Of a stretch of 64,000 bases of DNA, positions 3,576 through 40,601 are shown one piece after another. A program made the position numbers and the translations under genes. The notes under the pieces are model-generated. The model was not told the DNA's origin, searched no databases, and saw only the letters and a program-made list of their open reading frames with translations. The stretch covers positions 480,001 to 544,000 of the forward strand of contig OZ244653.1 of the NCBI GenBank assembly GCA_965218795.1, written 5' to 3'. Origin of the DNA: a bacterium (GTDB lineage Bacteria; UBA8248; JACPRG01; G963555815). Positions within the stretch are counted from its first letter, which is position 1, and each line of letters begins with the position of its first letter.

Positions 3576-3854
3576 CTCGGGAAGGACCGCGCGGGCGCGG
3601 CAAAGGGGGAATGGACCTTGGATTGTGACGTCGCCGCCATGCCGGCCGATGTCCGAAGAGGGGCTGAGCGAAGGACGCGAAGAGGAGCTCGAAAAGCTCG
3701 TCGGCGAGGCCCGCACCTTCCAGGAATCGCTCGTCCGGAACGCCTCCGACTGAGCGCAACCCCGCCCCATAGGGGCGCATTCGAGCCGGGCGGGCGAAAC
3801 TCGTATGAGTTTCGCGCGAGTTTCAGGCGAAACACGCCGAACACAATCCAACTC

Positions 3855-6496: not shown

Positions 6497-6627
6497 CGGT
6501 GAAGAAATTTGAGAAGGTGGCGAATTTCGCGTTCGATGGGCGTGGGCTTCATGTCGCTGGTACAGTACCGTCGAGCTGAGTAGCGAAACCGTGACGGTGT
6601 TGACCCCTCGATCGATCGTCTGCGCGA

Positions 6628-7746: not shown

Positions 7747-7930
7747 ACCCTCTCGCTGAAGGTGATCTCCGCGCGATCAGCTCCAAGACGATCGCGGTCG
7801 GATCAAGAGAAGGGCCAGCGATACGATCAGAAGGGCCTCGCACTGGATCGGCGCTCTCGGCACCAATGCGGGATCGCGCGGGTTCCGGTGCGGCTGGTCG
7901 GTGCGCAAAGGGCATCGCGAAGAGGATCGA

Positions 7931-12921: not shown

Positions 12922-12924
12922 GGA

Positions 12925-14876: not shown

Positions 14877-14913
14877 AACACGATGAATATAGGCATCAGA
14901 GTGAAAAATACAA
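14853..14913 (-). promoter_or_regulatory. Putative sigma70 promoter and operator of the abiE-STAND operon
   Basis: Minus strand TTGTAT-16 bp-TATATT ~10 nt before ATG 14876; inverted pair TTTCACT (14853-14859) / AGTGAAA (14900-14906). Confidence 0.45.
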
Positions 14914-15120
14914 GAGTGGTCGCTGCTGCGTGTCTCGACGCGCCGGCTGGCAGTCACGTTCGATGGTGTAGACGGGAGCCGCTGCCGCTCGATCTGGCGC
15001 CGACGCGGGCCAGTCTCAGGAGCCACAGCTTGCGATACGCCTATTGAGTCTTCCGAAAGCGGAAGACCGGGGGCGCCCGCCGAAAGAAGCTTGCTGGCGC
15101 CAGATCGCAAATCCCGGCGG

Positions 15121-16560: not shown

Positions 16561-17265
16561 CGGTTCTCTGGCGATGCGATGCGTCCGGGTGGCCCGACCT
16601 TGATGCGCCGCTCCGATTGGCGCAATAGGCTTGGCTGCAATGGGCGGGGTCGCGGTCGGTCGGATCGGGACGAGGCGAATTGGGCAACGCGGTGGCATTT
16701 GACTTTCGCCTCGTGGCCACAACCAACGGACATGGCGAGGGGTTGGTCGTCGAATCGCGGCGGTTTCGGATCGATGACGGATGCCTTACGCTCCGTATCC
16801 GACCATCGGGAGACTCGTGCTACATCAATACCTTGAGAGCCGGTGGGACAAGGGGAGTGGAGGAATTCGTATGACAGGCGGGAAGGTCGCGGAAGCGGTT
16901 TGCGTCGATTCTCTACGCTCGGAGGCGAGAAGCGCCAGGATGTTGAATTCACGCGGTTCCGATGCGATGACGGCCTGTCCGTGCCTTGCCGACCCGATGG
17001 TCGAAAAGTCCAGGGTCACTACCGGATTGCAGACTTGGCTACTGCCGACTTGGATGCCCGCTCGCAGTATGAGGCAAGAAGGTGATGTAAGCGGATTGAA
17101 TGGATTCTGGACCAACGACGCCGCCGAGGGACGGGATTCTGAAAGCACGCGGACGAAATCCGACAACGGACGCAAGCGGTAGCTTCTAGCAATTGACGAG
17201 CAAATCGAGGGTAGGATATTGAAGATGAGAGTGAACTACCTAATCACGGAACCTCATTAGGTCCC

Positions 17266-17526
17266 ATGCGAAAACCAAAAGTGCACCAGCGCACTGTTTT
17301 GCCCATAATGGGAACTATCGGGCTGCTCGTGTACGTAACAGCGCCTTGTTGGTTACCAAACTCTATTGTTGAACGCTTAGATTTTGTCGCGCTTGGCTTT
17401 GCAGCTCTAATTGCATTTCCGTGGCTCGTTGTTTGCTTTGAAGAGTTGGTATCAGCCTGGAGTCACCGCCATAACAGACTATCGGTGAAGGATATGGAGA
17501 AAGCCCGAAGGGATCAGACCTTATGA
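17266..17526 (+). CDS. Small two-TM membrane protein
   Basis: Two hydrophobic stretches; stop overlaps the next start (ATGA 17523-17526). Confidence 0.5.
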   Translation: MRKPKVHQRTVLPIMGTIGLLVYVTAPCWLPNSIVERLDFVALGFAALIAFPWLVVCFEELVSAWSHRHNRLSVKDMEKARRDQTL

Positions 17527-19343
17527 GCCAGAGCGACAAGGTGCATTTGAACGATAAGCCTGCGCCAAGTGGCGAGGAAGCGAAGCGGGACATGGAGGTG
17601 TCGGACGTCGCCGACGACCTGGGTGTCGCGATCGAACTGCTCGAACCCGGCAAGCCCCTCGTCCTGAACGACGGATTCCTCGTAACCGACAGCGGAAACT
17701 TGATCGTGAGTCAGTATGTCGACATTGGTGTGGACAAGCTGCGCCGACGCCCCTCGACTGTTTTGAAATTCATCGGGGCCAAGTACGGGCTGGAGCATGC
17801 CCTGGAAATTCAGGTGTCCGCCCCGAATCGGTACCGCGATTACGGGGAGACGTTCATCCAAGACGACCAGGAAGGACACGCCTTACGCGAAACCAAAACC
17901 GAAAGCCCACCGCGGTCCTATGAAGAACAAAATCGGGAGCAGGAAAGAGCGTTGTCTCTGCTAGGACAGGAGGGAATGACGATCACAAACACGGATACTC
18001 CGCACGTCGACCGTGCCGCCGAAAGCATGACATTCGGCAAGAGTTCTTGGATCTATTGCACGGCTATAGAGACAACTCCCGAAGAACGGAATGCAAAGCA
18101 CGAGAAATTGTCCCACAAGTATGACCACGAGAGCGTAATTCGGCAGCCAGGAAGGTTCGCCTTTGCACTTGGAGAAATGTTTGCCAACCAACGGGGTCCT
18201 CGAGGACAACGAGGCGACTCTAATCATCCAGGAGGCATTAAGTCATTTCACAACGCTCAACTCGTGATGCACGGCCCCGTTTGGTACACAGACGACGTGC
18301 TTGGGTTCCTTGAGTCACGACGATCCGAGCCTTTGTATAACATGTACCCGCTTTTCTTGAAGCACAGTGAGTATCGAGATCAGCAGGAATACAGATTTGT
18401 ACTTCATTGCGAAACGCCTGTTGAGTCGGAGACACTACGCCTGAACATCACAGGGGCGATGCGCGATGCCCTGGCTCCGCCTCTCGTGGGGGGCCACGTG
18501 ACCTTCCAACGCCGTGAGGACTCCGATGCCGACTCGTCTTCGGGGAAGGTTTCGGGTCCGACACCTACGTTCCAGACCATGACGCAAAGTCGCAATTGGT
18601 CAAATAGGCGCCGTCGGGCATTGAGTATCGAGGGCGAGGTCGTCCAGGAGGAGATCATTACTTCCGAGCAGACCATCGTGTTGAAGACGGAGCTTCCTGC
18701 CGACGGCCTGGAGCTTGGTGAGAGCGGTCTGGATGCTCCAACTCCGAAGGAAGGAGAAATTACCGACTTGAAAACCCGAGAACGTAGGGTTGCAGGAGAG
18801 GTAACCGACAAGGAGACAAGCTGGCGCACAAGGATTTTCACCATCGCGGACCCTTCCGACGCCGAAAGACTGTTCACGATGGAAGAGCAGGATAACGCGG
18901 CAGAGATGCTCAAGGCAGTCAGGCGGCCTTTTGAAAACTTCTCGACATTACCGAAGCAGGCGTCCGAGGCACTAAAGGCACTGGCCTATCAGACAGCATT
19001 TGTCGAACCAGATCTCAAGGTGCAGACAATGAGTGCATGCTGGAATGCCATTTGGGCAATATGCAATCTCTATGAGTGCTATGGCGATATTGTCGGGCCA
19101 GTAAGCATCGAGGAGGACGAGTTTGTTGCCATTACGCTGAAGCAGTCGGAGGATACCGGCGCGGAAGGCAAGATACTCGTGGGACCAAGAGGGACGTTCG
19201 CTTACCTGCTGGTACGCGGAGACGAGAAACGTCCCGGAAATGGGGGCACAAGGGATCGGCTCGTTTTTTTCCCTGACGAAGAGACGCGTGCTGCATTCGC
19301 GGAGTTCGGTTGGACGACTCTGGGGGAGGATGATTCAGAGTAA
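17523..19343 (+). CDS. Hypothetical 606-aa protein, N-terminal half resembling DUF2971-like fold
   Basis: Long ORF in lower-GC DNA; WIYCT...GPVWY...FLKHSEYRDQQEYRF. Confidence 0.65.
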   Translation: MSQSDKVHLNDKPAPSGEEAKRDMEVSDVADDLGVAIELLEPGKPLVLNDGFLVTDSGNLIVSQYVDIGVDKLRRRPSTVLKFIGAKYGLEHALEIQVSAPNRYRDYGETFIQDDQEGHALRETKTESPPRSYEEQNREQERALSLLGQEGMTITNTDTPHVDRAAESMTFGKSSWIYCTAIETTPEERNAKHEKLSHKYDHESVIRQPGRFAFALGEMFANQRGPRGQRGDSNHPGGIKSFHNAQLVMHGPVWYTDDVLGFLESRRSEPLYNMYPLFLKHSEYRDQQEYRFVLHCETPVESETLRLNITGAMRDALAPPLVGGHVTFQRREDSDADSSSGKVSGPTPTFQTMTQSRNWSNRRRRALSIEGEVVQEEIITSEQTIVLKTELPADGLELGESGLDAPTPKEGEITDLKTRERRVAGEVTDKETSWRTRIFTIADPSDAERLFTMEEQDNAAEMLKAVRRPFENFSTLPKQASEALKALAYQTAFVEPDLKVQTMSACWNAIWAICNLYECYGDIVGPVSIEEDEFVAITLKQSEDTGAEGKILVGPRGTFAYLLVRGDEKRPGNGGTRDRLVFFPDEETRAAFAEFGWTTLGEDDSE

Positions 19344-19616
19344 AGCAAGGATGTTGGAGATCGCGACGTCGGATTCCGTGGAGGTCTTCGCGAACCGTGT
19401 GGGTCGATCGGCTGAATGGTGGAGCGGTTCGGAGTTGAGCGCGGAGGAACGATGCCGTTACGACAATTGAGGCGCAGCATACCTCTCGCCGACTTGGTTC
19501 GGAGGGTGGGCATCTAGCGGTTGAGGAATCACGATGCATTCTTGGGAATCTTCGTCAAGTACGCCAGAATCCGCAGATGGCGCAGCCGGCTCGGCGAACA
19601 GAGCCGGCCGGCGCCT

Positions 19617-19812
19617 CTATAGAATGTAGCCCGCAATGCTATCGGCGATCCGCTCCGCCGTCTCATGGATCGAGTCGTACGCCAGATGGGCGTAGCGCGC
19701 CGTGGTCTCGATATCGCTGTGGCCGAGCACCTTGCCGATCACCGGCAGTGTTTCGCCGAGTGCCAGGGCGCGTGACACGAAATGGGTGACGTAGGTTGTG
19801 AGGGGTGAACTT
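19617..19812 (-). pseudogene. Frameshifted C-terminal fragment of a tyrosine integrase
   Basis: HNLRH then, shifted, FVSRALALGETLPVIGKVLGHSDIETTARYAHLAYDSIHETAERIADSIA; same family as 926-1078. Confidence 0.8.
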
Positions 19813-19922
19813 CGGCGGCCGCAGGCATTGCGGACAACGGCGCGGTCGGGCTAGACAGACCGGCAGAGCCGGGAATTCGGCATACCCGACCAAGCGGCGC
19901 AAATATCCGGGAGATCCTTGGC

Positions 19923-20897
19923 GTGGACAATGTAGAATGGAGTTGGAACGAGAAGGCTCATCCAATGACCGTGAATGCAATGTTGAATTGTGTCACGGAA
20001 CTCGCGACAGCTGCGCAACGATTCCCAATGGCAACGAAGCAATCTGACGAGAGCACCGCTCTACTTCTCCTGCAAACAGCGGTTAGGCAGATGTCGGTCC
20101 CTATACGAAAGCTCTGCTTGGACGGAAAGGGTGATCTTCTTCAGAGAACAATTGGAAACCCGCATTTCTTACCGATGGGCGGAGAAAAAGGGAATTTTAG
20201 CAAGGCAACAATGAAATGGAGGACCCAACGCCACGAGTGGGTTTTGGGTTACGAGGGGGGCAGAAAAGAAGAAGTGATTGTTCCGGAAACCGAGCACGAA
20301 ATAGAGATTGGGAGATTGTACGGGATTGAGTTTCAAGAAGATGGATGGTGCCAAATAAGGAGTCCGTTCGATCAAACAGGAAGCGGGGTCGATATGGACA
20401 CGTGGCTAGAGACGAAAATTTTGCAGGTGAATTCGATTGGCTATACAGTAAGGGATGCACTGAAGTTGGTGGCGGACTTTGAGGGAGCACATACTAACGA
20501 CCAATTGCCTGCATTTGCAGCGGTTAGGGTCAAACCGGATGACTTTGATAAAGGAGCGAGAAAGCGCTACAGGATGGCAAACTGCGTCTATTTCGGGTGC
20601 TTGTCCTATATTCAACTGATGGTAATTTATGCAGGTCTGTACGTTATTCGGAAGATGCAAAAGTTGATTCAAGAACGTCCTCTTTGCAAGAACGGAGTCA
20701 ACGTGGCTGCTGTCGCCGAGATAATTGCCGCGGTTGAGTCGGATTTGTCAGCGCGCAGCCGAATAGTGAATGGTTGTCACGAAATGATTGTTGTTGGGAA
20801 GTCTAACGTGTCAGGTGCGGAGCGCAAGAAAACCATCTATCGGATATGGTCCGGTTGTGAAGAGTGGGACAAACCCGTTGCAACGTCGAAGCCCTGA
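19923..20897 (+). CDS. Hypothetical protein (low GC)
   Basis: 324-aa ORF with natural composition; no family recognised; start uncertain. Confidence 0.6.
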   Translation: MDNVEWSWNEKAHPMTVNAMLNCVTELATAAQRFPMATKQSDESTALLLLQTAVRQMSVPIRKLCLDGKGDLLQRTIGNPHFLPMGGEKGNFSKATMKWRTQRHEWVLGYEGGRKEEVIVPETEHEIEIGRLYGIEFQEDGWCQIRSPFDQTGSGVDMDTWLETKILQVNSIGYTVRDALKLVADFEGAHTNDQLPAFAAVRVKPDDFDKGARKRYRMANCVYFGCLSYIQLMVIYAGLYVIRKMQKLIQERPLCKNGVNVAAVAEIIAAVESDLSARSRIVNGCHEMIVVGKSNVSGAERKKTIYRIWSGCEEWDKPVATSKP

Positions 20898-20970
20898 ATC
20901 GGTGCGGTCAGTGGCACGCAGGTCTGACGCTCCTTTTTCGACGCGTCCCGGCAAAGTTGGGCAGTAGCGC

Positions 20971-21190
20971 TTACGGCATACTCCACAATCGGGACATTGG
21001 AACTGCATGGAAACGATCGCCAAAGGGGATGCTGATTTCGCCATCATACAGCACTATGCCACGTACGAAGCGGTTGCCGACTGCCTTTTCGAGTTTGCGC
21101 AACCCACGCAAGTCAGTCGAATTCACTGTGGCCGCTGCCTTGATCTCAACGCCGGCGACGGCACCAGACATCTGCTCGATGACAATATCT
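20971..21190 (-). pseudogene. C-terminal fragment of AAA/DUF4143 protein
   Basis: DIVIE...GVEIKAAATVNSTDLRGLRKL...FVRGIVLYDG. Confidence 0.7.
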
Positions 21191-21683
21191 CAAATAACTT
21201 GCGATGCTTAGCTGTCGCCGTCATACGGTTTAGCGCAAGGGCAACGTCCGCGCCTCGCGCTGCGTTCTTTCAAGTCGGTCCACGTTGCCATGAACGCGTT
21301 GTGCCGCCCCGGGTCACCAGCATCAGCTTGTCCCTGCCGCGCTGCATCGGGTTCGGGTCGGCTTGTGCCCATTGCCGCCACCAGCAAAGCGCTACGAAGT
21401 CCGCAGGTAAGCCCGATGCGGTCACTTGCACGTTGCTCTTGCAAGAGATGGCGAGGTGCTGCTGATCGTCCTGCGACGTCGTAGCCGTCAACAGGATATC
21501 GTCGATGGCCCAGCCAAGGGCTTCGACCTGCATTGGGAGCAGTGTTCCGGTACCCTCGACACCAGGAAGCGGCTGACCGGTGAGCACCTTTAAGAGAATC
21601 CAGGCAGCGACATGATCCTCGAAATCGAATCCGGATCCCGCCGTCGATCGCGTGGTGCTCGGTCCTGCCGTTTTATTCTTCAT
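21191..21683 (-). pseudogene. N-terminal nuclease-like domain of a truncated large (probably STAND) protein
   Basis: STAGSGFDFEDHVAAW...Q....GWAIDDILL...LAISCKS; frameshifts near 21310 and then fuses to the DUF4143 fragment. Confidence 0.55.
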
Positions 21684-24185: not shown

Positions 24186-24980
24186 GCGCCTCACCTGACC
24201 CGATTCCCGCACCCCATACAAGCCCGAGCGGGTTCGTGTTCGACGACAGCCGGGCGAGGACGAAGGCCACGCACGGTCTGCGAGCTCCTTCCCGCCGTAG
24301 AGCCAGAGGGAAGCAAGAGCCGGGCGAACGCCCGGCATGGGAGAGGGAGAACCGTCTCCCGGTCCCGATGCCGGAAGCGCCAACCCGGAACAGGAGACCC
24401 GCCCATGCTCGACTGTGACCTCGAACTCGATGTCCCCACCAGTGATGAACTGCTCGCCGAGATCGGCCTCGATGCCCGCACCATCCGAAGGATCCGGACT
24501 GAAGCCGGAGAAGAAGAGGCGCTCTTCTAGGGTGAACCAAGGGGGCCGGAGAGAGAGGCTCTCCCCCCTGTTCCATCACCCGTTGTCATCCACACTCTCA
24601 CACAGAAGGAGAATGATCATGGCTTTCGGACTCAATCGCGCGGAACTGATCGGCCGCCTGGGATCCGACGTCACCGTCAACCACCTCACCAGCGGTGGAC
24701 GCGTGGCCAACCTGTCGATCGCCACCGACGAGGGCTACATCGACAAGCAGACCGGAGACCGGGTCGACAAGACCGAGTGGCACCGGGTGGTGACCTTCCA
24801 GCCCGGGCTGGTGGACATGTTCGAGAAGCACGCGACGAAGGGCCGGCTGGTCTATGTGGCGGGCAAGCTCCAGACCCGTCGCTGGAAGAAGGACGACGAG
24901 GACTCCGACCGGTTCTCGACGGAGATCCTGCTGGTTCCGGGCGGGCGCGTGCAGTTCCTCGACAAGCCCAACGGCTGGAT

Positions 24981-26021
24981 TTACCCCGTTTCAGTGGACA
25001 GTTTATGGCTGTCGTCCCCAGCCCTGAGGTGGGCGACAACCGGTGGACGTAAAGTCTTCTCCCTATCCGATAGATAGGGTGCCCCCGGGGGGTATGTCTT
25101 GACCTTTGGCTCGCCGCTCTGGGAAGCGCCGGGGACGGCTCGAGCCGGACGATGAGCGTTGCGCACTGCACGTGGCGTTTCCTTCGCCGCGGCGCGTTCG
25201 AAGTCGTTGGGGCTGAGGTAACCCAGGGCCGAATGACGACGGCGTGGGTTGTACCAGCCTTCGATGAATTGGAAGATCGCCATGCGCGCTTCGGCCTGGG
25301 TACGGAACGAGCGCCGGTCGATGAGCTCGCACTCCAGCGTGGCAAAGAAGCTCTCGGCCATGGCGTTGTCGAAGCAATCCCCGGCCGACCCGGTCGAGGG
25401 AACCACCCCCATCTGGCGGCACCGCTTGCCGAAGGCGAGCGAAGTGTACTGCGATCCCCTGTCGGAGTGATGCACGACCCCGTCGGGGCGGCGCTGTCCC
25501 AACGCCATGTTCAGCGCCCCGAGCACCAGTTCGGTGCGAAGATGGTGGGTCATGGACCAGCCCACCGCCCGGCGGCTGAACACGTCGAGCACGATGGCCA
25601 GGTACACGAACCCCGTCCAGGTCGGCACGTAGGTCACGTCGGCCACCCAAAGCCGATCCGGCCCATCGGCCTGGAACTGGCGTTCGACCCGGTCCGGGAC
25701 CACACAATGGCTCTGGTCCACGCGCGTAGTGCGCATACCTCGGCGTCGGCTCACCCCGGCCAACCCTGCCTCGCGCATCAGACGAGCCACCCGTTTGCGG
25801 CTCACCCGGCAGCCGCCGGCCATCAGCTCGGCATGGACCCGAGGCGCCCCGTAGGTGCCACCAGATGCCTCGTGGATGGCCCGTATCGTGCCCCCCAACA
25901 CCTCGTCGCGCTTCGCACGAGGAGAACGCCCACGGCCTCGCCACGCGTAGTACCCGCTGGGGGAGACGCCCAGCACCCGGCACATCGTGGCCACCCGATG
26001 ATGGGCCTGATTCGCCTTCAC
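24981..26021 (-). CDS. IS3 OrfB DDE transposase
   Basis: WVADVTYV, VHHSDRGSQY, DNAMAESFF; GTG overlaps the orfA stop. Confidence 0.92.
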   Translation of the reverse strand: MKANQAHHRVATMCRVLGVSPSGYYAWRGRGRSPRAKRDEVLGGTIRAIHEASGGTYGAPRVHAELMAGGCRVSRKRVARLMREAGLAGVSRRRGMRTTRVDQSHCVVPDRVERQFQADGPDRLWVADVTYVPTWTGFVYLAIVLDVFSRRAVGWSMTHHLRTELVLGALNMALGQRRPDGVVHHSDRGSQYTSLAFGKRCRQMGVVPSTGSAGDCFDNAMAESFFATLECELIDRRSFRTQAEARMAIFQFIEGWYNPRRRHSALGYLSPNDFERAAAKETPRAVRNAHRPARAVPGASQSGEPKVKTYPPGAPYLSDREKTLRPPVVAHLRAGDDSHKLSTETG

Positions 26022-26332
26022 GAGCTCGAGGACTTCGCCCGGACCGAGCCGGTCTCCCGAGCGAACCAAGCCGTAGCTTTTGCCAGTATCTCGCGTTCTT
26101 CGCGAAGCTGACGAACCTCTCGACGAAGCCGTCGCAGCTCCTCAAGCTCGGCGCTTGTCAGACCATCCTCACGACGGCCTTCGTCCCGGTCGGCCTGACG
26201 CACCCAGTTGCGAATCGCCGAAGCGGAACACTCGAACTCCCGGGCCAGCTCCCCGGGCGTACGGCCCGAGCGAACCAGCTCGACCATCTGGCGCCGGTAC
26301 TCCGGCGCGTAGGGTGAATGAGTTTTCGCCAT
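26018..26332 (-). CDS. IS3 OrfA (HTH)
   Basis: YAPEYRRQMVELVRSG...LAREF...IRNWVRQ...ELRRLRRE...EREILAKA. Confidence 0.9.
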   Translation of the reverse strand: MAKTHSPYAPEYRRQMVELVRSGRTPGELAREFECSASAIRNWVRQADRDEGRREDGLTSAELEELRRLRREVRQLREEREILAKATAWFARETGSVRAKSSSS

Positions 26333-26487
26333 CGGAACACCTCCTCCGCACAGTCTGAAGGTGTCCACTGAAACAGGTCAACTCCACGGCAACGGCGCGC
26401 CGGTCGCGGGGGCGGAGACGCCGTCCGACGAAGCGCCCATCGACGACATCCCGTTCTGAGCGCGCATTCCGTTTCCTCTCTCTACCT

Positions 26488-27660: not shown

Positions 27661-28309
27661 AGCGGGAGAGAGGGTGAACGCCGTGAGGAGGGAGAGAGAG
27701 GGCCCCGGGCATCGGCAACACGCAAGGAGAACCGAAATGCAATCCGTTACCTTCAGGAGCATCGCCCGTACGAGTCGAGGGTCTACGACGATGGCAATCT
27801 CGTCGCCAAGGTTGCGGAGCGACTCGTCGATACGCGTCCGTTGCGGTGACGGGCCATGCAGTATGCGGGCGATCCCTTCGGGCCGGGCTCTCCGCTGCAA
27901 TCTCCGCTTGCCGGGCCGGCGCCCGAGACCCGGGTCTCAATTCCGGAACCGCCCAGGGGGTCCGCGCCAATCGCTAACAATATCCCTCTCGACGTGATGG
28001 CCCATTGTCCCACACGTGCTCGCGGCGCCAACCCCCAAGGGGTCCTACTCTCCGCTACGCTCCGTTCCGGCCTTGGCTCGCAAGGCTACGGCGCAAAAGC
28101 GCCTAGGCGCGCCAAGAAACGCGACCGAGGCTCCGCGCTCCCTGCGGTCGCTTGTGCGCCCGCACCACTCGCGCCCCTCGCCGCGCCAGGCCTTGCGGCC
28201 GCGGTGACTTTGCTGCGCGCGCGTGGGCCACTCAACCATCACGTTCGGAGACTCTCTCCGCACAACGAACCATAACGGTTCTCTACACTCAATCCATAAG
28301 GAGAGCATC

Positions 28310-29233
28310 ATGAACGATATCGACAACATCCAAGCGCAAGCGCAGTCCGTCACCGCCACCGTCTGCGACCAGGCGGCTCTCTTCGGCGCTACCCCGGAGC
28401 AAGACGAATTCGACAACCGGGAGCTCTGGGACCCGGAGAACGCCCTCTCCGCCGTCACGGAAGCCTTCCGCATCATGGCACACGGCGTCGCGCCCGACGG
28501 AACGCAACTCGCCGACGAGCGCGAGAGCCTGCTCTGGGGCTTCGTCAACATGCTCGACGCCCAGACCCAGCGCCTCGACCGCGCGGCCGACAGGCTCGTC
28601 CCCGAGATGCGCGACCTCCAGCGCGAGCAGGACGGCTCGGAGTTCAGGTCCCGAGAGCTCGAACTCGTCACCGACCGAACCAAGAACCTCACGGACCGGC
28701 GGGACGCCTTCGAGCAGCTCAGAGACACCGCGGCCGAGGCCTACCGGGTCGAGACCGGAGACCTCTGGCGGCCCCGGCGCGGGTCCCACACCAGCCAGAC
28801 CGGCAAGCTCACTTCGGCCATGATCGATGCCCGCGACTTCCAGCGTGCCCGCAGGGACCGCGAGAACAAGGCCCTCCTGCCCCAGGGAACGCTCGTCGCG
28901 GTGGCAGGCGGCAGGCAGGCCGGCGACGCCGGTACGGTCATCCGGCATCTGGAGAAGCTCAGGGCGAAGTACGACGATGTGGTCCTGGTCCACGGCGGCG
29001 GCCCCGGCGTCGAGCGCATCGCGGCCAAGTGGGCGGACCGCAACGGCGTCCACCAGATCGTCTGCAAGCCCGACTGGGACGCACACGGCAGGGCCGCTCC
29101 CTTCCGGCGCAATGACGAGCTGCTCGATCTCCTCCCCAAGGGCGTCATCGCGTTCCCGGGTTCGGGCATCACGGACAATCTGGTCGACAAGGCGCGCAAG
29201 CTCGGTATCCCGGTCCAGTGCGTCGCCGCCTGA
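28310..29233 (+). CDS. DUF2493 (SLOG/YspA-like) domain protein
   Basis: AAGGAG RBS; VAVAGG...LVHGGGPGVERIAAKWA...PDW..HGRAAPFRRND...IAFPGSG. Confidence 0.85.
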   Translation: MNDIDNIQAQAQSVTATVCDQAALFGATPEQDEFDNRELWDPENALSAVTEAFRIMAHGVAPDGTQLADERESLLWGFVNMLDAQTQRLDRAADRLVPEMRDLQREQDGSEFRSRELELVTDRTKNLTDRRDAFEQLRDTAAEAYRVETGDLWRPRRGSHTSQTGKLTSAMIDARDFQRARRDRENKALLPQGTLVAVAGGRQAGDAGTVIRHLEKLRAKYDDVVLVHGGGPGVERIAAKWADRNGVHQIVCKPDWDAHGRAAPFRRNDELLDLLPKGVIAFPGSGITDNLVDKARKLGIPVQCVAA

Positions 29234-32721: not shown

Positions 32722-32789
32722 AGCACTTGGCCTGAAAGGCTCAAGGCCAAGACCTGCGTCCTTCAAGGAGTCCAGTTTATCAATGAGTA

Positions 32790-33019
32790 TTACTGGATTC
32801 TAGAAGGAGGCGGAGGTGGCCCAGGCCCAGGGAAGACGGTCGTCCAGGTGTGCAAGCAGATCGGGGTGCCGAGCAGACCTACCTGGCGATGGAGGAAGGA
32901 GTACGGTGGTCTGAGGATGGACCAAGCCCAACGTCTCAAGGCGCTGGAGAAGGAGAATGTCCGGCTGAAGAAGCGGGTGGCGACAGCCCTAAACTGTCCA
33001 CTGAAACGGGGTAAATCCA
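32790..33019 (+). mobile_element. Chimeric IS3 remnant: decayed orfA of another IS3 plus the right end of the IS at 24976
   Basis: WRKEYGGLRMDQAQRLKALEKENVRLKK; 32981-33019 matches the reverse complement of the 24976 IS end. Confidence 0.8.
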
Positions 33020-33337
33020 AACCGACCCCACTGGTGCTACTACATGTTACGGACTATTTCGAAAGCCGATCACGCTGGCAAGTCGGCGGTTCCAGGCGTT
33101 GATCGAAAGGATCTTTTCGAGATTAACATAGTAGTACTGCCTCTCGAAGAGCAGGATGTAATTGTCGAGGAGGTCGAGAAGACATTAGCTGGGCTTGAAG
33201 CTGTCGTGATTACGACCCGCCGCCAAATCGACCTTCTCCGGGAGTACCGTACCCGCTTGATTGCCGACGTGGTGACAGGCAAACTAGATGTGCGCGAGGC
33301 GGCGGCACAACTGCCGGACGAATCCGACGAGGCGTAG
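33020..33337 (+). pseudogene. hsdS: C-terminal fragment of type I R-M specificity subunit
   Basis: SAVPGVDRKDL...LPLEEQDVIV...IDLLREYRTRLIADVVTGKLDVR. Confidence 0.85.
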
Positions 33338-33429
33338 CCACTTGGTGGCCCTGACAACGTAACGAGCGAGGCCGACGCCCCGGACCGGCGGTTCGCAGCG
33401 CGAGTCGCATCCAGAAAGGCCAAACGGAC

Positions 33430-34317
33430 ATGAGATTCGACAGTCCACTCAGGTATCCGGGAGGGAAAGCATCCCTTGCGGCATTTCTCACTCGGACAAT
33501 TGAACTGAATAACCTATCGGGTTGTTCGTATTTCGAACCCTTTGCCGGTGGCGCGGGCGCCGCGCTACGCCTCCTTCGCGAAGGTGTCGTCTCGGAGATC
33601 CGGCTGAACGATTTGGACCCTCGCATCACCGCCTTCTGGAAGGCTGTGCTGGATGAGCCGGAGCGGTTCGTCGACGCCATCCTGTCTGTTCCGGTGAGCA
33701 TTTCGGAATGGAAGAAACAACGGCACATCTGTCAGCGTGCTGATGCCAGCAAGCCCTTTGAACTTGGCTTCGCTGCTTTCTACTTGAACCGCTGTAATCG
33801 GTCCGGCGTCCTCCTCGGGGCAGGTCCCATTGGGGGTCATGCGCAAACAACGAAGTGGGGGATTAACGCTCGCTTCAACAGAGCAAACCTCGCGGAGCGC
33901 ATCCTCACGGTCTCGCGTAGACGTGAACAAATCCACATCACCAACATGGACGCCCTTGCGTTCCTCGTTACCCATCTCCCGCAGGGACGTGAACGGAAAC
34001 GCGTTTTTGGCTATCTGGACCCACCCTACTACTCAAACGGTAGCCGGCTCTATATGAATTTCTACACAGACCGAGACCACAGAGGCCTGGCCCGCTACAT
34101 ACAGCGGCAGCGGACCCTCAAGTGGGTGATGTCCTACGACGATACACATTTCATCAGAGGTCTGTACGCAGACTGTGTCATGTCCCATCTCTCGCTCCAG
34201 TACAGTCTCCAGCGAAAGCAACAGGCACAGGAACTTCTGATCGCGCCGGCCCATGTACGGCTTCCCGCCTTTGTTGCGCCAATTGACACACACCAGTGCA
34301 AAGCGGCGTCGGCTTAG
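33430..34317 (+). CDS. Dam-like (D12 class) N6-adenine DNA methyltransferase
   Basis: SPLRYPGGK, YFEPFAGGAG, LNDLD, YLNRCNRSG, YLDPPYY, WVMSYD. Confidence 0.9.
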   Translation: MRFDSPLRYPGGKASLAAFLTRTIELNNLSGCSYFEPFAGGAGAALRLLREGVVSEIRLNDLDPRITAFWKAVLDEPERFVDAILSVPVSISEWKKQRHICQRADASKPFELGFAAFYLNRCNRSGVLLGAGPIGGHAQTTKWGINARFNRANLAERILTVSRRREQIHITNMDALAFLVTHLPQGRERKRVFGYLDPPYYSNGSRLYMNFYTDRDHRGLARYIQRQRTLKWVMSYDDTHFIRGLYADCVMSHLSLQYSLQRKQQAQELLIAPAHVRLPAFVAPIDTHQCKAASA

Positions 34318-34330
34318 GAAGGAGGATTCA

Positions 34331-35437
34331 ATGAATACCGAAGAGATCACACTGATGAACGTCTCTAATCTGGTATTCGATCTCAAGAACCCCCGGCTTC
34401 CTGAGTTTGACCTGACTGCAAACTCAACAGACGCCCAAGTGATACAGGTTCTATGGGAAGCGATGGATGTAAGAGAACTCGTAATGTCCATCGCAGCCAG
34501 TGGATTTTTTCGCCATGAACCCGTGATCGTCGCGCAGGAGAATGGAAAGAACGTCGTTATCGAAGGGAACCGCCGCCTCGCCGCAGTCAGAGTTCTTCTG
34601 GATCCAGAACTTGCCGAATCCCTGAAGGCGGATGATGTTCCTGACATCACCGAAGAAGACAAGGAAGCACTCAAAGAGCTTCCCACTGTGCTTGGTGCCC
34701 GCGAAGATGCTTGGCGCTATCTCGGCTTCAAGCACGTGAACGGGCCGGCCAAATGGAGTAGCTACGCCAAGTCTCGATACATTGCTGATGTGCACAGGAG
34801 TTTCGGAGTCGAACTTGGAGACATCGCGAAGCAGATTGGCGACACCCATAGGACCGTCCAGAGACTTTTTCGCGGCCTGATGGTCGTTGAGCAGGCGGAG
34901 CAGATGAAAGTATTCAGTCGCCACGACCGTTGGCGAAACCATTTTTCGTTTTCTCATCTCTACACCGGCCTCGACTACGACGGGATCAGCACCTTTATCG
35001 GCTTGGGACCGGAGACCGAGGAGGATCAGGAGCCGGTTCCCGTCGAGAAGAAGGAAGAACTCGGTGAGCTTTGCCTCTGGATGTACGGCAGTAAGAAGGA
35101 GAAGATGCCTCCCGTCATCGAGACACAGAACCCGCATCTCCGGCAGCTCGACGCAGTCGTGAGCAACATGGAAGCTCTCACCGCCCTTCGGAGTGGTCAC
35201 GACCTCACCTATGCCTACGAGGCGAGCCGTCCATCATCCACTGTCTTCGAGGAATCGCTGCTTGCCTCGAAACGGGATCTTCAGAAGGCGCACAGTTTGC
35301 TTTCCGTTGGCTACGATGGTTCCGAGGGACTGCTCAGAATTGCCGACACGGTGGCGGAACTCGCGGATGACCTTTACAAGGCGATGGACAGGAAGCGCAA
35401 TCCGCGGAGGAAGAGACGTACCGCGGAGGATGGTTGA
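34331..35437 (+). CDS. ParB/Srx-like N-terminal domain protein
   Basis: AGGAGG RBS; LVFDLKNPRL...LVMSIAASGF...EPVIV...VVIEGNRRLAA. Confidence 0.82.
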   Translation: MNTEEITLMNVSNLVFDLKNPRLPEFDLTANSTDAQVIQVLWEAMDVRELVMSIAASGFFRHEPVIVAQENGKNVVIEGNRRLAAVRVLLDPELAESLKADDVPDITEEDKEALKELPTVLGAREDAWRYLGFKHVNGPAKWSSYAKSRYIADVHRSFGVELGDIAKQIGDTHRTVQRLFRGLMVVEQAEQMKVFSRHDRWRNHFSFSHLYTGLDYDGISTFIGLGPETEEDQEPVPVEKKEELGELCLWMYGSKKEKMPPVIETQNPHLRQLDAVVSNMEALTALRSGHDLTYAYEASRPSSTVFEESLLASKRDLQKAHSLLSVGYDGSEGLLRIADTVAELADDLYKAMDRKRNPRRKRRTAEDG

Positions 35438-36363
35438 TGTTCAAGTGGCCGGGGACACCATCCGATCAAGCATCCAAACACGAACTTGCGGACTACGCCG
35501 AGTTGGTTTGCTGGAAGCAAGGCAGCACGTCGGTGACTGCCCTATCCGCCGACCTCGGCAGGCTTGAAGAAAACGACCACTCTGACGGTGTGCGGGAAGA
35601 GGAAGAAACAGATGAATTCGTCACAGCAGCATGCGAGGAGATCGAACAACGCGGAGAGGCGTGTAGAGGCGGCTATCCGTATGTGATCGGCAAACAGGGA
35701 TACTCACTTCGTGACAACCAAGAAACTGAAAACCACAGACACATCATTTACAAGTACCTGCTCCTGGCGACCCGGATGAACATGAAAGACAACCGGGTTC
35801 ATGCAGATATTGACGGTACGCTTCTGTTGGAGCAGCTCGCCGCCGATGTGGCGCGAGAGTATCTTGGCGCCCGTGCGGAGAGTTTTGTCTTTGGTACTGC
35901 CGCGGGGATGACTGATTTCTCAAAAAAGGTTGACGATCTTTGCGTCCGAATGAAGGAGGGTGATTCCTTCGTGAACCGTGACGAGGCCCCGCCGAACGAG
36001 AAGGATGGCAAGCTCGATGTTGTGGTGTTGAAACACTTCACGGACGGTCTGCCAGGAAAACTTATTGCTTTTGGGCAGTGCAAGACGGGAACCAACTACA
36101 GGGATACACTTACCCAGCTTCAGCCCGGTTCATTCTGCGACAAATGGTTGCACTCACCCCTCGCTCTCACCCCAGTGCGAATGTTCTTCATTTCAGAGGC
36201 TTTGTCTCGGGAAAGGCGGTTCACCATCGCACGCGACGCTGGCTTGCTGTTCGACCGGTGCCGGATTGTCGATTTCTGTGATTACATCAGCGCAGACGTA
36301 TTGAAGACAGTAAAGGTCTGGACAGCGGCGGCCGCAGCCAAGGTGATGAAATTGCCCGGTTGA
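35437..36363 (+). CDS. Hypothetical protein with restriction-endonuclease-like motif
   Basis: TGATG overlap with upstream gene; LLEQL...KDGKLDVVV...FGQCKTG resembles E...D...(Q)xK. Confidence 0.7.
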   Translation: MFKWPGTPSDQASKHELADYAELVCWKQGSTSVTALSADLGRLEENDHSDGVREEEETDEFVTAACEEIEQRGEACRGGYPYVIGKQGYSLRDNQETENHRHIIYKYLLLATRMNMKDNRVHADIDGTLLLEQLAADVAREYLGARAESFVFGTAAGMTDFSKKVDDLCVRMKEGDSFVNRDEAPPNEKDGKLDVVVLKHFTDGLPGKLIAFGQCKTGTNYRDTLTQLQPGSFCDKWLHSPLALTPVRMFFISEALSRERRFTIARDAGLLFDRCRIVDFCDYISADVLKTVKVWTAAAAAKVMKLPG

Positions 36364-36439
36364 TAACGTTTAGAGGAACCATGACAGCAAAAGGACGAGA
36401 CAAGAGAGATGTAGGGGGCCGGCGGACGAGCGGGCCAAT

Positions 36440-36998
36440 CGTTCGAGCAATGTCCCGGAAATGACGGCAGCGTGAGCCGCGCTGGTCGGGCTGATGGACC
36501 GTTACCTTCGCGGCCTGCTGGATCCGTTCGTAACGCTGCTGGAAGTGCACAAGCTTCTGTATTTCATACAGGAATCTGGTGAGCGCTTGCAACTCAAATA
36601 TCAAAAGGCACTCTACGGACCTTATACCGAGAATTTGCGGCACGTCCTGCACAAGGTTGAAGGACATTTCATCTCCGGTTACGCCGATGGCGGCGATAAA
36701 CCCGGCAAGCAACTTGAACTTGTCCCCGGCGCAATCGAGGACGCGACTGTCTTTCTTGAGGGTCACCCGAAAACGCGCGCAACGTTTCAATAAGGTCGCC
36801 GATCTGGTCGAAGGGTTCGAGTCGCCCTTCGGGCTGGAATTGCTTTCCACGGTTCACTGGGTCGTCAGCCGGGAACAGGCACGGATCTCTGATGACGTAA
36901 TAGCCCGCACGTACGCCTGGAACGAGAGAAAGAGACAGTTCTCCCGGCGCCAGATCGGGATCGCATTCGGTGTTTTATCGGAGAAGGACTGGATTTAG
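36440..36998 (+). pseudogene. darG: C-terminal part of DarG-like antitoxin (macrodomain missing, frameshifted near 36780)
   Basis: LLEVHKLLYF.QE.GE.L.L.Y....YGPY..NL.HVL..VEGH; GFESPFGLELLSTVHWV...WNERK. Confidence 0.75.
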
Positions 36999-37021: not shown

Positions 37022-37072
37022 ATGACCACCGACACCAGCGAAAAGGGGCTTGAGCGCCTCATCTGCATGGCC
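37022..37072 (+). pseudogene. hsdR: First codons of a type I R-M restriction subunit
   Basis: MTTDTSEKGLERLICMAL resembles HsdR N-termini; position after hsdS; cut by an IS remnant. Confidence 0.55.
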
Positions 37073-37207
37073 CTGGGCTACCTCAGCTCCAACGACTTCG
37101 AGCACGCCGCGGCGAAGGAAACGCCACGTGTGGTGCGCAACGCTCATCGTCCACCTCAGGACTGGGGGCGACAGTCATAAACTGTCCACGAAATCGGGGT
37201 AAATCCA
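37070..37207 (+). mobile_element. Internally deleted right-end remnant of the IS3 element
   Basis: Matches the orfB tail (ALGYLS.NDFE.AAAKETPR) and the IR end AACTGTCCAC...GGGGTAAATCCA. Confidence 0.85.
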
Positions 37208-37319
37208 CCAACTCGCAGCGCAGAAATTCCTGCATGGATTGGCGTTGCAACGCCGCGCGCGCAGCAAGCTCGTCGCGCACTTCCTCTGGGACGCCTCTGA
37301 TGGTGATTTGTACCGACAT
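37208..37319 (-). pseudogene. FitA-like RHH antitoxin truncated by the IS end
   Basis: MSVQITIRGVPEEVRDELAARAALQRQSMQEFLR. Confidence 0.7.
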
Positions 37320-37682: not shown

Positions 37683-40601
37683 CTATAGATCCAGGTCCAT
37701 TCCGATTCGCTTCCCGCGTACCGGAGGCGCGGGTTCCCGCTCGTTGTCGGTCGAGATGTCCGAGCCACGGTCTGCCTCCCGAGGCGGTTGGATCTGTCGA
37801 TCCCTTGTCCGGTCGGGCTTTGCTTCCCGCGCCTTCCCGTCCATTTGCGGCGCCGGCTGCGTAGCCTCGCCGATCCCTTCCAGCGCCGAGACGCGCTCGC
37901 CGGTGACGGCTTCGAGTTGCTCCCGTAGCCCATTCTTGTCGTCGGTCACGAGTTCCGCCCGATCGCGGGCCCGGCTGATCTCCACATAGAAGCTCTTCTG
38001 CGTGGTGAGATGGGGGTGGTTGGCCTCCATCGCCGCGATGACGTTATCCACCGTTCTGCCCTGGAAGGCATGTACGGTCGAGGCCCAGGCATGGTCGAGA
38101 TGACGCAGTTGCGGGTCGTTGGCGCCCAGTTCCAGTTTGCGCCCGTTTTCGAGCTGAAACGTGACGCGGCCGTTCGCGACCGAAGCGACCTCGGCCGTGC
38201 GGCTGTTGACCAGCCCCAGGCCGGCATCGTTGCGGGTCCAGCGGATGCGGTCGCCCGCACGGAGTTCGATCTCCTCGGCCCGGTAGACCTCGGTTCCGCC
38301 GTTCCGCCCGCCGATCTCGCCCGGTTTCCAGGGCACGGTTTCGCCGTCCCTGCCTTCGAGCAGCACCGTGCGGGCCTCGTGGTCGACCCCTGAGATGATG
38401 CGCTCCTCTCCCTTCTCGACCCCGAGGCGCTTGTAGGGACGGTGGAAGGCCACCACGTCGCCCGGCCCGTAGTTGGCCGCGAGCGCCTTCTCGGCGTTGG
38501 TGTAGCCGTGCGAGACCAGCCGCTCGCTCTGCATCGCGGGTCCGTGAATGCAGCCCTCGCGGGCGAGACGCTCGCGGATATGGGCATTGATCCGTTGCCG
38601 TAGCTCATGGCTCGGGGCCATCACCCCGGTGTTCTCGCGCGCCTCCGGGGAGAGCTTGAGCCAGCGCGCCGCCACCGCGCCGGCGATATTGTCCGCCTTC
38701 ACCTCGGCGACATTGGCCCCGAGCTTGTCGAACGCCTTGCCGATCTCGCCCGCGAGACTCGCCTCGACCGCGGCTTTCAGGTCTGGGTCGCGCTGGCGCA
38801 TGATCTCGTCCATGGTCGCGGTCTTCATGCCAGCCTGCTGCAGCTGCGCGAACGGTTTGCCCGCATCCACCGCATCGAGCTGCTTGCGGTCGCCGACCAG
38901 CACCACACGTGGAAGGCGCAAGGTGTTGGCGACCCTCAGGAGGTCGCGGGCCTGGGCCGTGGAGGCGAGGGAGCCCTCGTCCACCACCAGCACGGTCTTC
39001 TTGAACGCCGCCCGCATCTCCCTCTCGCCCTTCCGGGTGAGCCGCCCCTCGGCGATCCCGGCGTTGCGTGCGAGGAAGCGTTGCAGGGTCTCGCTCTCGA
39101 TCCCGGCCTCTGCCGCCAGGGTCTTCACCGCCGAGGCCGAAGGGGCCAGTCCGATCATGCGGTAGCCGTTCTTGGCTGCGAGCGCTCGGGCGCGGTTCAG
39201 CATGGTGGTCTTGCCGGTCCCGGCATAACCCTGCACGCCGACGACGCGGTCTTTTTCCGAGAGGATCAGCTTGACCGCGTCCTTCTGTCCCGCCGTGAGC
39301 GGCCCCTTGTGCAGATGCGCCTGGACCATCCAGCTCCGCATGGGCGCCCGGCCGCGGTTCTCGCCGCCGTGCATGAGCGCAATGGTCTCGCGTTCGTCGG
39401 CGACCGCCTTGTCCGTGGTCATGCCGTCGCCGCCTTCGAGCGCCGGAGCGGCATGGAGCCGGCCTTCCTTGCGCAGGTCCTCGACGGCCCGTTCGGCGGC
39501 CTCCACGGAGACCGCGCCGGGGTCCCGGGCGAGGGCCGCGGCGAGAAGACCGGTGCGCGGGAACACCGCCTCGCGCTCGGAGAGATGCGCCACCGCCCAT
39601 TCCACGGCTTCCCCGGCCAGCCCCCGGTCCTGAGACGTCTCGCGAGCCGCACCGGCGCCTTCCCGGCCGGCGTCCTTGGCCATCGCTTCGGCCGCCAGGG
39701 CCTTCGCGTCGAACCCGAGGCCGGCGGCCTGCTTCTCCCAGATCCCCCGCAGCGCCGCTTTGTCCACCTCGCGCTTGTGGGCCCGGGTCATGAGCGCCGC
39801 GCGCTGGGCGAGACGTTGGTTCTCGGCGGGATCGCCCAGACCCCGTTCGGCCATGGCCGCCTCGATTTCCGCCCGCCGGGTCGAGAACGCCTCGATCACC
39901 ATGCGGGGAACGCCCGCGATCTCGAACCGCCCGTCCACATGGGTCTTCTCTACGCCATAGCCAAGTTTCGTCAGATCGCGCGCCAGCTCGCTCCGGTACA
40001 TGGCGCCGATCAGCATCTTCGAGGCATAGAGCCTCTCGTTGGACATGGTCCGCCACTTGCAGTCCGCGCCTTGGACCATGTTGGCGATCACCGAATGGGT
40101 GTGAAGCAGGGGATCGAGATTGCGCGAGGTGTCGTGCCGGAAGGTCGCGGCCACCATCTTCTGCTCGCCCGCGCGGACCATCCGTCCGGTCTCCGGGTCC
40201 TTCATGCGGGTCTCTGCGACGTTCCTCTCGACCCAGGCGAGGGTGCGCCTGACGGCCCGGTCATGGGCCTCGACGACGCGGACGTCGCCGCCGATGAGCG
40301 CGGTGAGGGAGACGGACTTGGGGGCGGAGAAGGTGAGATCCCTCCCGGGCCGGTGATGTAAGTCGCCCTGTTTGTCCTTGCGTCCGAGCCGGCGGCCGGA
40401 TCCGTCAGGCACCTTGCCCTCCAGCACCGCCTGGAAGGTGTCCGGATCGACCGGGCCTGAGAGGCCCAGGTCCTCCGCGCCCTTGCCGGCCCAGGCGCTC
40501 GCTTCCCTGTGGGCCGGGTCGTCCTTCGCGTAGTAGCCGTCCCGCTCGTAGTAGCTCGCGCCCTGGGACGGGGCCGCGACGGCGCCGATCGATGCGACCA
40601 T
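37683..40601 (-). CDS. traI: MobF (TrwC/TraI) relaxase-helicase
   Basis: SYYERDGYY, DLTFSAPKSVS, HDTSRNLDPLLHTH, QGYAGTGKT, VVDEGS. Confidence 0.96.
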   Translation of the reverse strand: MVASIGAVAAPSQGASYYERDGYYAKDDPAHREASAWAGKGAEDLGLSGPVDPDTFQAVLEGKVPDGSGRRLGRKDKQGDLHHRPGRDLTFSAPKSVSLTALIGGDVRVVEAHDRAVRRTLAWVERNVAETRMKDPETGRMVRAGEQKMVAATFRHDTSRNLDPLLHTHSVIANMVQGADCKWRTMSNERLYASKMLIGAMYRSELARDLTKLGYGVEKTHVDGRFEIAGVPRMVIEAFSTRRAEIEAAMAERGLGDPAENQRLAQRAALMTRAHKREVDKAALRGIWEKQAAGLGFDAKALAAEAMAKDAGREGAGAARETSQDRGLAGEAVEWAVAHLSEREAVFPRTGLLAAALARDPGAVSVEAAERAVEDLRKEGRLHAAPALEGGDGMTTDKAVADERETIALMHGGENRGRAPMRSWMVQAHLHKGPLTAGQKDAVKLILSEKDRVVGVQGYAGTGKTTMLNRARALAAKNGYRMIGLAPSASAVKTLAAEAGIESETLQRFLARNAGIAEGRLTRKGEREMRAAFKKTVLVVDEGSLASTAQARDLLRVANTLRLPRVVLVGDRKQLDAVDAGKPFAQLQQAGMKTATMDEIMRQRDPDLKAAVEASLAGEIGKAFDKLGANVAEVKADNIAGAVAARWLKLSPEARENTGVMAPSHELRQRINAHIRERLAREGCIHGPAMQSERLVSHGYTNAEKALAANYGPGDVVAFHRPYKRLGVEKGEERIISGVDHEARTVLLEGRDGETVPWKPGEIGGRNGGTEVYRAEEIELRAGDRIRWTRNDAGLGLVNSRTAEVASVANGRVTFQLENGRKLELGANDPQLRHLDHAWASTVHAFQGRTVDNVIAAMEANHPHLTTQKSFYVEISRARDRAELVTDDKNGLREQLEAVTGERVSALEGIGEATQPAPQMDGKAREAKPDRTRDRQIQPPREADRGSDISTDNEREPAPPVRGKRIGMDLDL

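Follow-up and report, generated by a model that had tools for sequence, protein, structure and literature searches.

A conserved pair of a ParB-like protein and a PD-(D/E)XK nuclease with an exchangeable methylase: a candidate mobile restriction cassette

A 64,000-nt stretch of bacterial DNA (OZ244653.1, positions 480,001-544,000; assembly GCA_965218795.1), called the window below, carries at positions 33430-36363 a trio of open reading frames (ORFs) for a methylase (ORF1), a ParB-like protein (ORF2) and a nuclease-like protein (ORF3). Comparison with related loci revealed that the conserved, obligate unit is the ORF2+ORF3 pair and not the trio. The pair is a widespread, real and conserved module that is lacking from catalogues and apparently undescribed. 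The cassette probably destroys invading DNA. We read it as a mobile anti-invader cassette with a two-subunit core for methylation-gated restriction, in which a ParB clamp licenses the nuclease and an exchangeable methylase marks self, and we consider the chances of this reading to be about even.

The one-per-species genomes of GTDB were scanned with two short ORF3 patterns, which returned 229 relatives. Counts out of 80 refer to the best 80 of them (47-73% identity, metagenome-assembled genomes of many phyla); the other 149 were more distant. A ParB homologue lay upstream of the nuclease gene in 79 of the 80 loci. Both genes were intact in 73, and 57 of these showed a one-base overlap of the TGATG type. 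The same overlap joins the two genes in the window, where ORF3 would be translationally coupled to ORF2. In a plasmid collection, all four full-length ParB homologues (28-38% identity), found independently, were immediately followed by an ORF3 homologue (E 1e-24 to 1e-37). Single-sequence tblastn of ORF3 against plasmids and phages gave nothing, which reflects sensitivity, because the profile later found homologues in four plasmid-collection loci. The ORF3 family comprised 1,096 matches at 90% clustering and 891 clusters at 50% identity, and one search for longer, fused forms found none, which is weak evidence. No description of the pair was found in the literature searched, which took in extracts of PMC10853773 and 10.64898/2026.05.05.722872 and the main texts of recent discovery preprints, where ParB is unmentioned; most subscription papers and supplements fell outside this scope. 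In one locus (L078) the minus strand codes, 7 kb upstream of the pair, for another full-length ParB of the ORF2 family (462-1604), which is distant (35%).

The AlphaFold2 model of ORF2 (predicted local distance difference test, pLDDT, 89.7) was laid out as an N-terminal nucleoside triphosphate (NTP)-binding domain (residues ~1-140, with EGNRR at 78-82), a helix-turn-helix (HTH) region (~144-191), a helical middle and a C-terminal helical hairpin (~300-356). Foldseek matched the model to Noc, ParB and KorB (E 4e-6 to 1e-4), and VIA matched its range 1-288 to pNOB8 ParB (Z 8.4, root-mean-square deviation 4.0 over 195 residues). Clamp-type ParB proteins are described as having three parts, namely an N-terminal NTP fold, an HTH and a C-terminal segment (PMC12704722, in extract), and the predicted structure shows this full architecture in ORF2. 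From the model we infer a role of the C-terminal hairpin in the dimer. N20, R22, E78-R82, K134, H135, N137 and W142 were invariant in the ORF2 family, and the HTH residues H173, T175, R178 and R181 were conserved in at least 90% of it. At the sequence level the protein was hardly recognizable. Pfam gave no match, TIGR00180 matched weakly (25.7 bits vs a cutoff of 58.45), and a sequence search of the PDB returned noise only. The PD-Lambda-5_A models matched residues 9-169 only (model 14-175 of 473). As modelled, ORF2 has no HEPN domain and ends in a two-helix hairpin. Rx4-6H strings occurred five times in ORF2 by chance, the C-terminal one not being conserved. HEPN proteins were not listed among the fold-search matches, which alone excludes nothing.

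The ORF3 model (pLDDT 95.1) shows, by predicted fold, a winged helix (~9-114) and an Mrr-like PD-(D/E)XK nuclease domain (~127-290), with a putative active site of E132, D190/D194, Q214 and K216. In 125 ORF3 sequences down to 30% identity, D190, D194 and Q214 were invariant and E132 and K216 were conserved in at least 90%. The best Foldseek match was MspJI (E 2.6e-3, prob 0.99). VIA matched AF1548 (Z 8.0), MspJI (7.5) and PaqCI (7.3), as well as winged-helix proteins on residues 9-114; middling Z values of 7.3-8.0 speak for the fold only. No family in the Pfam and PADLOC models took in ORF3, NCBIfam gave only a spurious match (E 0.003), and the matching PHROGs were of unknown function only. 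Atlas leads pointed to the HaeII and BsobI endonuclease clusters (0.80-0.82). Sequence searches of the PDB with ORF3 and its profile likewise gave noise, and matches to SSL10 and antibody structures were rejected. In four distant homologues the K of QxK was replaced, the motif reading QxA(S/C)G, and a Lys followed a few residues downstream (WxxK); this residue is possibly a migrated catalytic lysine. A predicted ORF2-ORF3 complex scored 0.02, which is evidence neither way.

These results agree with an earlier sequence-only reading of the window in several respects. It had described three intact, tightly packed ORFs with a 13-bp gap and a TGATG overlap, which was confirmed, and the DPPY, EGNRR and D..GQCK motifs are present. 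Its ParB-like ORF2 and nuclease-like ORF3 gained support from the modelled Noc/ParB/KorB and restriction-endonuclease folds. It had also proposed that ParB licenses the nuclease. In three loci (L013, L031, L060) the ParB gene was broken while the nuclease ORF was intact, which fits ParB as an activator rather than an antitoxin, polar effects being possible. The proposal that the trio is a conserved unit held for ORF2 and ORF3 in the synteny survey, but not for the methylase, which is not obligate.

ORF1 matched the Pfam D12 family (PF02086, E 2e-14), with the motifs EPFAGGAG and DPPY intact. Its best PADLOC model was PD-Lambda-5_B (340 bits, E 2.5e-102, model positions 3-280 of 291), and MTase_II gave 273 bits. 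The score was far under the Dam cutoff (TIGR00571, 50 bits vs 114.85). Searched alone against PDB sequences, ORF1 matched no Dam structure at E 0.01. The sole match, 7M6B, showed distant similarity (E 5.5e-18, 68 bits), and a profile of 23 family members reached 7M6B at E 3.8e-36 vs E. coli Dam at E 6e-11. This structure is M.CbeI (PMC8616854, in extract), which was once annotated as an adenine methylase and carries DPPY, yet makes N4-methylcytosine (m4C) at GGCC (extract of PMC3425538). Because the closest solved relative is a DPPY-motif m4C enzyme, an N6-methyladenine (m6A) product is unproven for ORF1, and the "Dam-like m6A" label of the sequence-only reading is not established. Judged by these similarities, m4C would be at least as likely as m6A. 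No specificity data for this methylase family were found in the literature searched (extracts of PMC6536676 and PMC7556043).

The methylase partner varied widely among the pairs. Methylases near the pair were sought by tblastn and profile hidden Markov models, C5 methylases being probed with a 45-residue fragment only, and absence was judged at the locus only and not over host genomes. A close ORF1 orthologue accompanied 40 of the 73 intact pairs and a methylase of a second clade, a sister family, another 19; 12 had no intact D12 gene within 10 kb, and in 2 the gene was broken. The close methylase was directly adjacent to the pair, mostly amid unrelated genes. It co-diverged with the pair (Spearman 0.80 to ParB and 0.71 to the nuclease, ParB and nuclease themselves giving 0.78), these values being taken from pairwise identities of related rows and thus no independent test. 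The second clade (26-31% identity to ORF1) was monophyletic (SH-aLRT 100), yet its members stood, in four arrangements, next to pairs from scattered parts of the pair tree and co-diverged only weakly with them (0.27-0.29), which points to repeated recruitment. A NotI-family endonuclease (Pfam NotI) was kept in 3 of its 19 loci. Altogether, a quick tree of the pair with midpoint root implied 11 or more changes of the methylase state.

Further methylase classes stood beside distant pairs, including an N6_N4 type (L001), an annotated C5 enzyme (L004) and a type III Mod (L073). In L002, from a Vibrio campbellii record, a prophage slot between the phage integrase and the CI repressor (region 4787-9831) was filled by the pair together with a PD-lambda-5B-type methylase in convergent orientation. 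On a Neorhizobium plasmid (L004, 1-8830) the pair ended an operon of C5 methylase, GmrSD_N, Z1 and DUF4420 genes (Mza-like), and a gene for a weakly matching HNH protein came next. An ORF1-type methylase on a Microvirga plasmid (L089, 3501-5294) was convergent with a broken ORF3 homologue, and no ParB match lay within 3.5 kb. In Vibrio phage 10N.286.54.E5_PE002 (L088, 3486-7810) a PD-lambda-5B-type methylase was convergent with genes for a 459-aa protein, a P-loop NTPase and a HerA-domain protein, according to the record notes; the same methylase family may serve a further effector module. All seven alphaproteobacterial loci lacked the methylase. Since they form one clade (SH-aLRT 90), their absence may go back to a single loss. 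Host CcrM (GANTC) as the cause of this loss was considered and found unsupported, the loci being one clade and the methylase family pointing to cytosine and not to GANTC.

In the mechanism that we propose, a dimer of ORF2 would recognize an unmethylated site through its HTH and close on NTP, either cytidine triphosphate (CTP) or adenosine triphosphate (ATP). The closed form would load or activate ORF3, itself inactive without ParB, and ORF3 would cut DNA near the site or at a distance. The methylase, somewhat more probably of m4C than of m6A type, would block the loading of ORF2 on host DNA. For pairs without an adjacent methylase, a host methylase elsewhere might cover the site, or a further trigger might keep the pair quiet. 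The cassette of the window, together with scraps of a type I restriction-modification (R-M) locus, would have been carried into a conjugative element. A more specific form of this mechanism is possible, though less likely than not: an NTP-closed ParB ring would load at an unmethylated parS-like site, slide, and deliver or switch on the winged-helix nuclease, and m4C set by either of two interchangeable alpha-class methylases would block the loading. Sliding type III enzymes and the winged helices of DpnI-type enzymes provide analogies. If true, this would be a CTP/NTP-clamp counterpart of the ATP-driven type I and III enzymes, with the clamp of chromosome segregation as the sensor of self and non-self.

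In favour of methylation-gated restriction are the conservation of the pair, its recurrent link to methylases, the predicted folds and the decay of the cassettes. Where the methylase was broken, ParB or the nuclease was broken too in 4 of 7 loci, compared with 1 of 60 where it was intact (Fisher p ~2e-4, by hand), a pattern that decay of the whole cassette would yield as well. Several other observations weigh against this reading. The 14 of 73 intact pairs without an intact adjacent D12 methylase would be lethal under strict type II logic. Methylase-less pairs nevertheless retained all motif residues, five in the nuclease and eleven in ParB, although for the nuclease the scan patterns partly ensured this by their design. 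Their dN/dS of 0.14-0.24 was like that of the rest, indicating purifying selection. The methylase was cleanly deleted internally beside an intact pair in L050 and broken beside intact pairs in L028 and L062, and L003 had no annotated adjacent methylase. This makes it doubtful that the pair is generally toxic in the absence of the methylase, as had been expected on the sequence-only reading. Upstream of the trio in the window, the plus strand showed no promoter-like site. The target site was not inferable from codon-shuffled k-mer avoidance, which was dominated by generic TA/TAA avoidance, and palindrome avoidance in the flanks gave a mild GGCC depletion in every group and none in the window. 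Finally, NTP was bound by 11 of 28 purified ParB-fold proteins, and the nucleotide choice of such proteins is not predictable from sequence (both from the extract of PMC12704722).

The survival of the pair without an adjacent methylase would be expected of a guard or abortive-infection system comparable to PD-lambda-5 or PrrC, in which ParB would sense infection and release non-specific degradation of DNA by ORF3. Its trigger could be phage DNA, a shift in NTP, or a disturbance of the methylase or of the marks it sets, the methylase acting as decoy or first line and not as the source of a protective mark. Such a module is conceivable, if somewhat doubtful. The methylase belongs to the same family as that of PD-lambda-5 and the ParB N-domains are homologous, PD-lambda-5 itself having been called 'RM+Abi' (PMC9519451, in extract). 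The hsdS-hsdR slot is occupied in 7 of 80 loci, as it is by PrrC (PMC3710099, in extract), and the copy in Vibrio is flanked by a prophage integrase and a CI repressor. However, the many-fold recruitment of the second methylase family without its endonuclease is not easily explained in this way, and the conserved HTH of ORF2 together with the winged helix of ORF3 suggests the reading of a DNA site.

The pair's independence of the methylase in those 14 loci is also compatible with a type IV, modification-dependent enzyme, a split analogue of GmrSD, whose winged helix or ParB would read modified phage bases while the methylases were mere neighbours in a defence hot spot. The best fold matches of ORF3 do include the modification-dependent enzymes MspJI and AspBHI, and winged helices act as readers of m6A in DpnI-type enzymes. 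However, the MspJI match was limited to the catalytic, Mrr-like domain, neither an SRA nor a PUA domain was seen, and ORF2 had no GmrSD_N/DUF262 match. In 40 loci, moreover, methylase and pair co-diverge and lie directly side by side, with mostly unrelated genes around them. We consider this explanation unlikely.

The surroundings of the trio in the window bear on its history (Table 1). Upstream of ORF1, the TGA of the former hsdS overlaps the ORF1 start codon (ATGA), an arrangement shared with L006, and a piece of darG with two frameshifts and one stop follows ORF3; the orthologue in L006 is intact (231 aa). In L006 the ancestral order hsdS-trio-darG C-terminal domain-hsdR is preserved, with 75% DNA identity to the window over 3.8 kb. 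Remnants of IS3-family insertion sequences (IS) cut the type I locus on both sides (~33019 and ~37069), their inverted-repeat ends lying at 32976-33019 and 37164-37207. The left remnant stands in place of hsdM and the 5' part of hsdS, and the first 89 nt of the right one are 91% like a full IS at 24976-26386. The flanks of the 4-kb segment code for RecD2, TrwC relaxase, a coupling protein, TraG and TraH, which indicates an F-type conjugative element. The trio sits in a 4-kb type I R-M remnant carried on this element. The fragments of hsdS, darG and hsdR named in the sequence-only reading were all recovered. Its observation of a lower GC content stands with respect to the conjugative flanks (0.552 for the trio vs 0.675 and 0.703), but the whole hsdS-hsdR segment has 0.556, and the low GC belongs to this ~4-kb segment and not to the trio alone.

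Table 1. Features of the trio and its surroundings in the window, and distant nuclease homologues in other loci (positions in the respective locus)
Feature	Positions	Strand	Description
ORF1	33430..34317	+	295 aa; putative alpha-group Pfam D12 amino-methyltransferase, PD-lambda-5B family; accessory, exchangeable part
Spacer ORF1-ORF2	34318..34330	+	13 bp; AAGGAGG ribosome-binding site for ORF2
ORF2	34331..35437	+	368 aa; ParB-like protein, predicted clamp architecture; core part
ORF3	35437..36363	+	308 aa; predicted winged helix and Mrr-like PD-(D/E)XK nuclease domain; core part
IS3-family remnant, left	32780..33019	+	orfA piece and terminal inverted repeat; HTH_Tnp_1 E 9e-7
hsdS 3' remnant	33029..33433	+	PADLOC Specificity_I E 7e-20; internal stop at 33335-33337
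Pseudogene of a DarG C-terminal-domain-only gene	36381..36998	+	DarG match E 6e-24; no macrodomain, no darT
hsdR, first 19 codons	37022..37078	+	cut by IS remnant; tblastn with HsdR of L007, 79% identical, residues 1-19
IS3-family remnant, right	37069..37207	+	orfB 3' end and inverted repeat
Distant nuclease with WxxK, L001	7046-8146		
Distant nuclease with WxxK, L002	7101-8117		
Distant nuclease with WxxK, L003	7111-8070		
Distant nuclease with WxxK, L004	7104-8027		

About four lesions were counted in ~1.0 kb of flanking pseudogenes, whereas the trio, with 2,934 bp, had none. If lesions arose at a uniform rate, a lesion-free trio would have a chance of ~0.005 by a hand calculation, although the lesions may be older than the present context. 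An intact trio amid pseudogenes could be the mark of a selfish addiction cassette with the methylase as antidote, or of a partition-like maintenance module that contributes little to defence. The same may be said of L009, L010 and L025, where hsdS scraps precede the trio and no hsdR was found. In contrast, the methylase was lost or deleted beside an intact pair in L028, L050 and L062, and a parA gene was not noticed in the neighbour families that recur beside the cassette. We consider addiction or maintenance quite improbable.

A type I locus surrounded the cassette in 7 of 80 loci. The hsdS-hsdR interval, which the sequence-only reading had taken for a slot for accessory genes, is thus a real insertion site, but a minority context of the cassette. 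From the gene content of these loci, the slot appears to collect several accessory defences. Apparent toxin-antitoxin pairs of ribbon-helix-helix (RHH) and PIN type and TIR-like genes were read from the sequence in the nuclease-hsdR interval (L007, L018, L048) and upstream of hsdS (L037, L048). A stand-alone DarG C-terminal-domain gene lies in the slot behind the trio in L006 (6381-7076), the only fetched locus with it besides the window.

Other features of the window were noted outside the type I segment. A fragment of a FitA-like RHH antitoxin gene (37083-37319) adjoins the right IS remnant, and the conjugative backbone includes a gene for a SLOG (YspA-related) domain protein (28223-29233). 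A second copy of the TrwC relaxase gene, broken and inverted (2192-3578 vs 37890-40355), is 78-85% alike in three stretches. A direct repeat of ~500 bp (59823-60322 and 63398-63894) is 86-87% identical at a spacing of 3.57 kb. A second cargo region (5588-21465) is probably another defence cluster. It codes for Fic (5588-6496), a trypsin-like peptidase (6628-7746), Mrr_cat (12022-12921), AbiEii (12925-14094) and DUF6880 (15121-16722) proteins. A 1,611-aa ORF (7931-12766, minus strand) in this region had no Pfam match, and two low-GC ORFs of 606 aa (17523-19343) and 324 aa (19923-20897) had no match.

The core pair is common, with 229 GTDB relatives and 891 clusters at 50% identity, yet it is invisible to current catalogues, which would probably register only the methylase or a partial PD-lambda-5. 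The three genes offer an easily cloned handle on ParB-fold switches in defence and on the role of the PD-lambda-5 methylase, and the natural swaps of effector (HEPN vs DNase) and the swaps and losses of the methylase are ready controls. If clamp loading is methylation-gated, this would be a new restriction mechanism, and it may be a new way to switch on restriction.

Among known systems, several share single components with the cassette. Canonical ParB, Noc and KorB clamps, which were the top Foldseek matches, have the N-terminal NTP fold with GxRR, the central HTH and the C-terminal helical segment in common with ORF2. In contrast, ORF2 fell under the family cutoffs, had no parA partner in sight and is coupled to a nuclease, and clamping is predicted only. 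Nucleases of the Mrr, MspJI, SdaI and FokI type share the predicted PD-(D/E)XK fold with QxK motif and the winged helix with ORF3, although no family match was found at the sequence level. GmrSD and Menshen NsnA also use a ParB/Srx fold in defence, but the ParB of ORF2 is of the clamp type and not DUF262, and ORF3 is a predicted PD-(D/E)XK and not an HNH nuclease. As for type IV restriction (GmrSD, MspJI), a winged helix is present in ORF3, and neither an SRA nor a DUF262 match was found in the cassette. PrrC, an ABC-ATPase with HEPN found obligately between hsdS and hsdR, has other domains, and the cassette lies in a type I locus in a minority of cases only. Type II R-M systems resemble the cassette in having an endonuclease with an intact PD-(D/E)XK site, as judged for ORF3 from the modelled fold and the conserved E132, D194, Q214 and K216; unlike in those systems, the cognate methylase is not constant. 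On the methylase side, M.CbeI (alpha-class, m4C, GGCC) is, among solved structures, the nearest to ORF1 and to either methylase clade, at a distant similarity; the second clade is linked to NotI-family R-M systems by the Pfam NotI endonucleases beside three of its members; and ORF1 falls far short of the family cutoff of the Dam methylases (GATC, m6A), such as EcoDam, T4Dam and DpnM.

The PADLOC candidate PDC-M38A matched ORF2-family proteins over most of their length (model 60-369 in L003, 59-354 in L002), so it would have a related full ParB clamp. However, its model of 715 positions is twice the length of ORF2, and ORF3 did not match its C-terminal half. The make-up of the PDC-M38 system was absent from the main text of the preprint, which bears on the claim of novelty for the pair.

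The nearest named relative was PD-lambda-5, whereas the sequence-only reading could assign the trio to no named system. PD-lambda-5 consists of a ParB/HEPN protein and a methyltransferase and was termed a compact 'RM+Abi' system by its authors (Vassallo et al. 2022, PMC9519451, in extract); ParB-methylase-HEPN operons had been noted earlier, not with an ORF3-type nuclease as far as the extract of PMC3710099 goes. The 340 bits of ORF1 on PD-Lambda-5_B compare with 376-408 for three methylases beside full-length PD-lambda-5A matches, and ORF1 falls within the same major methylase clade. The ParB N-domain of ORF2 is homologous to that of PD-lambda-5 (hhalign prob 97%, E 1e-10, 149 columns), and both systems occur on prophages and other mobile elements. 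In contrast, subunit A of PD-lambda-5 is a ParB-HEPN fusion of 430-510 aa that matches the models over their full length, whereas ORF2 matches ~160 of 473 positions and has the HTH and helical hairpin instead. Three PD-lambda-5A proteins, in turn, matched the ORF2 profile over the N-domain only. The cassette has a separate DNase gene, while no nuclease homologue lay beside three PD-lambda-5 loci (L085-L087), and its methylase is dispensable or replaceable. Taken together, these comparisons suggest that the cassette is a relative of PD-lambda-5 and not a member, set apart by its subunit A counterpart and the extra DNase and joined to it by the methyltransferase.

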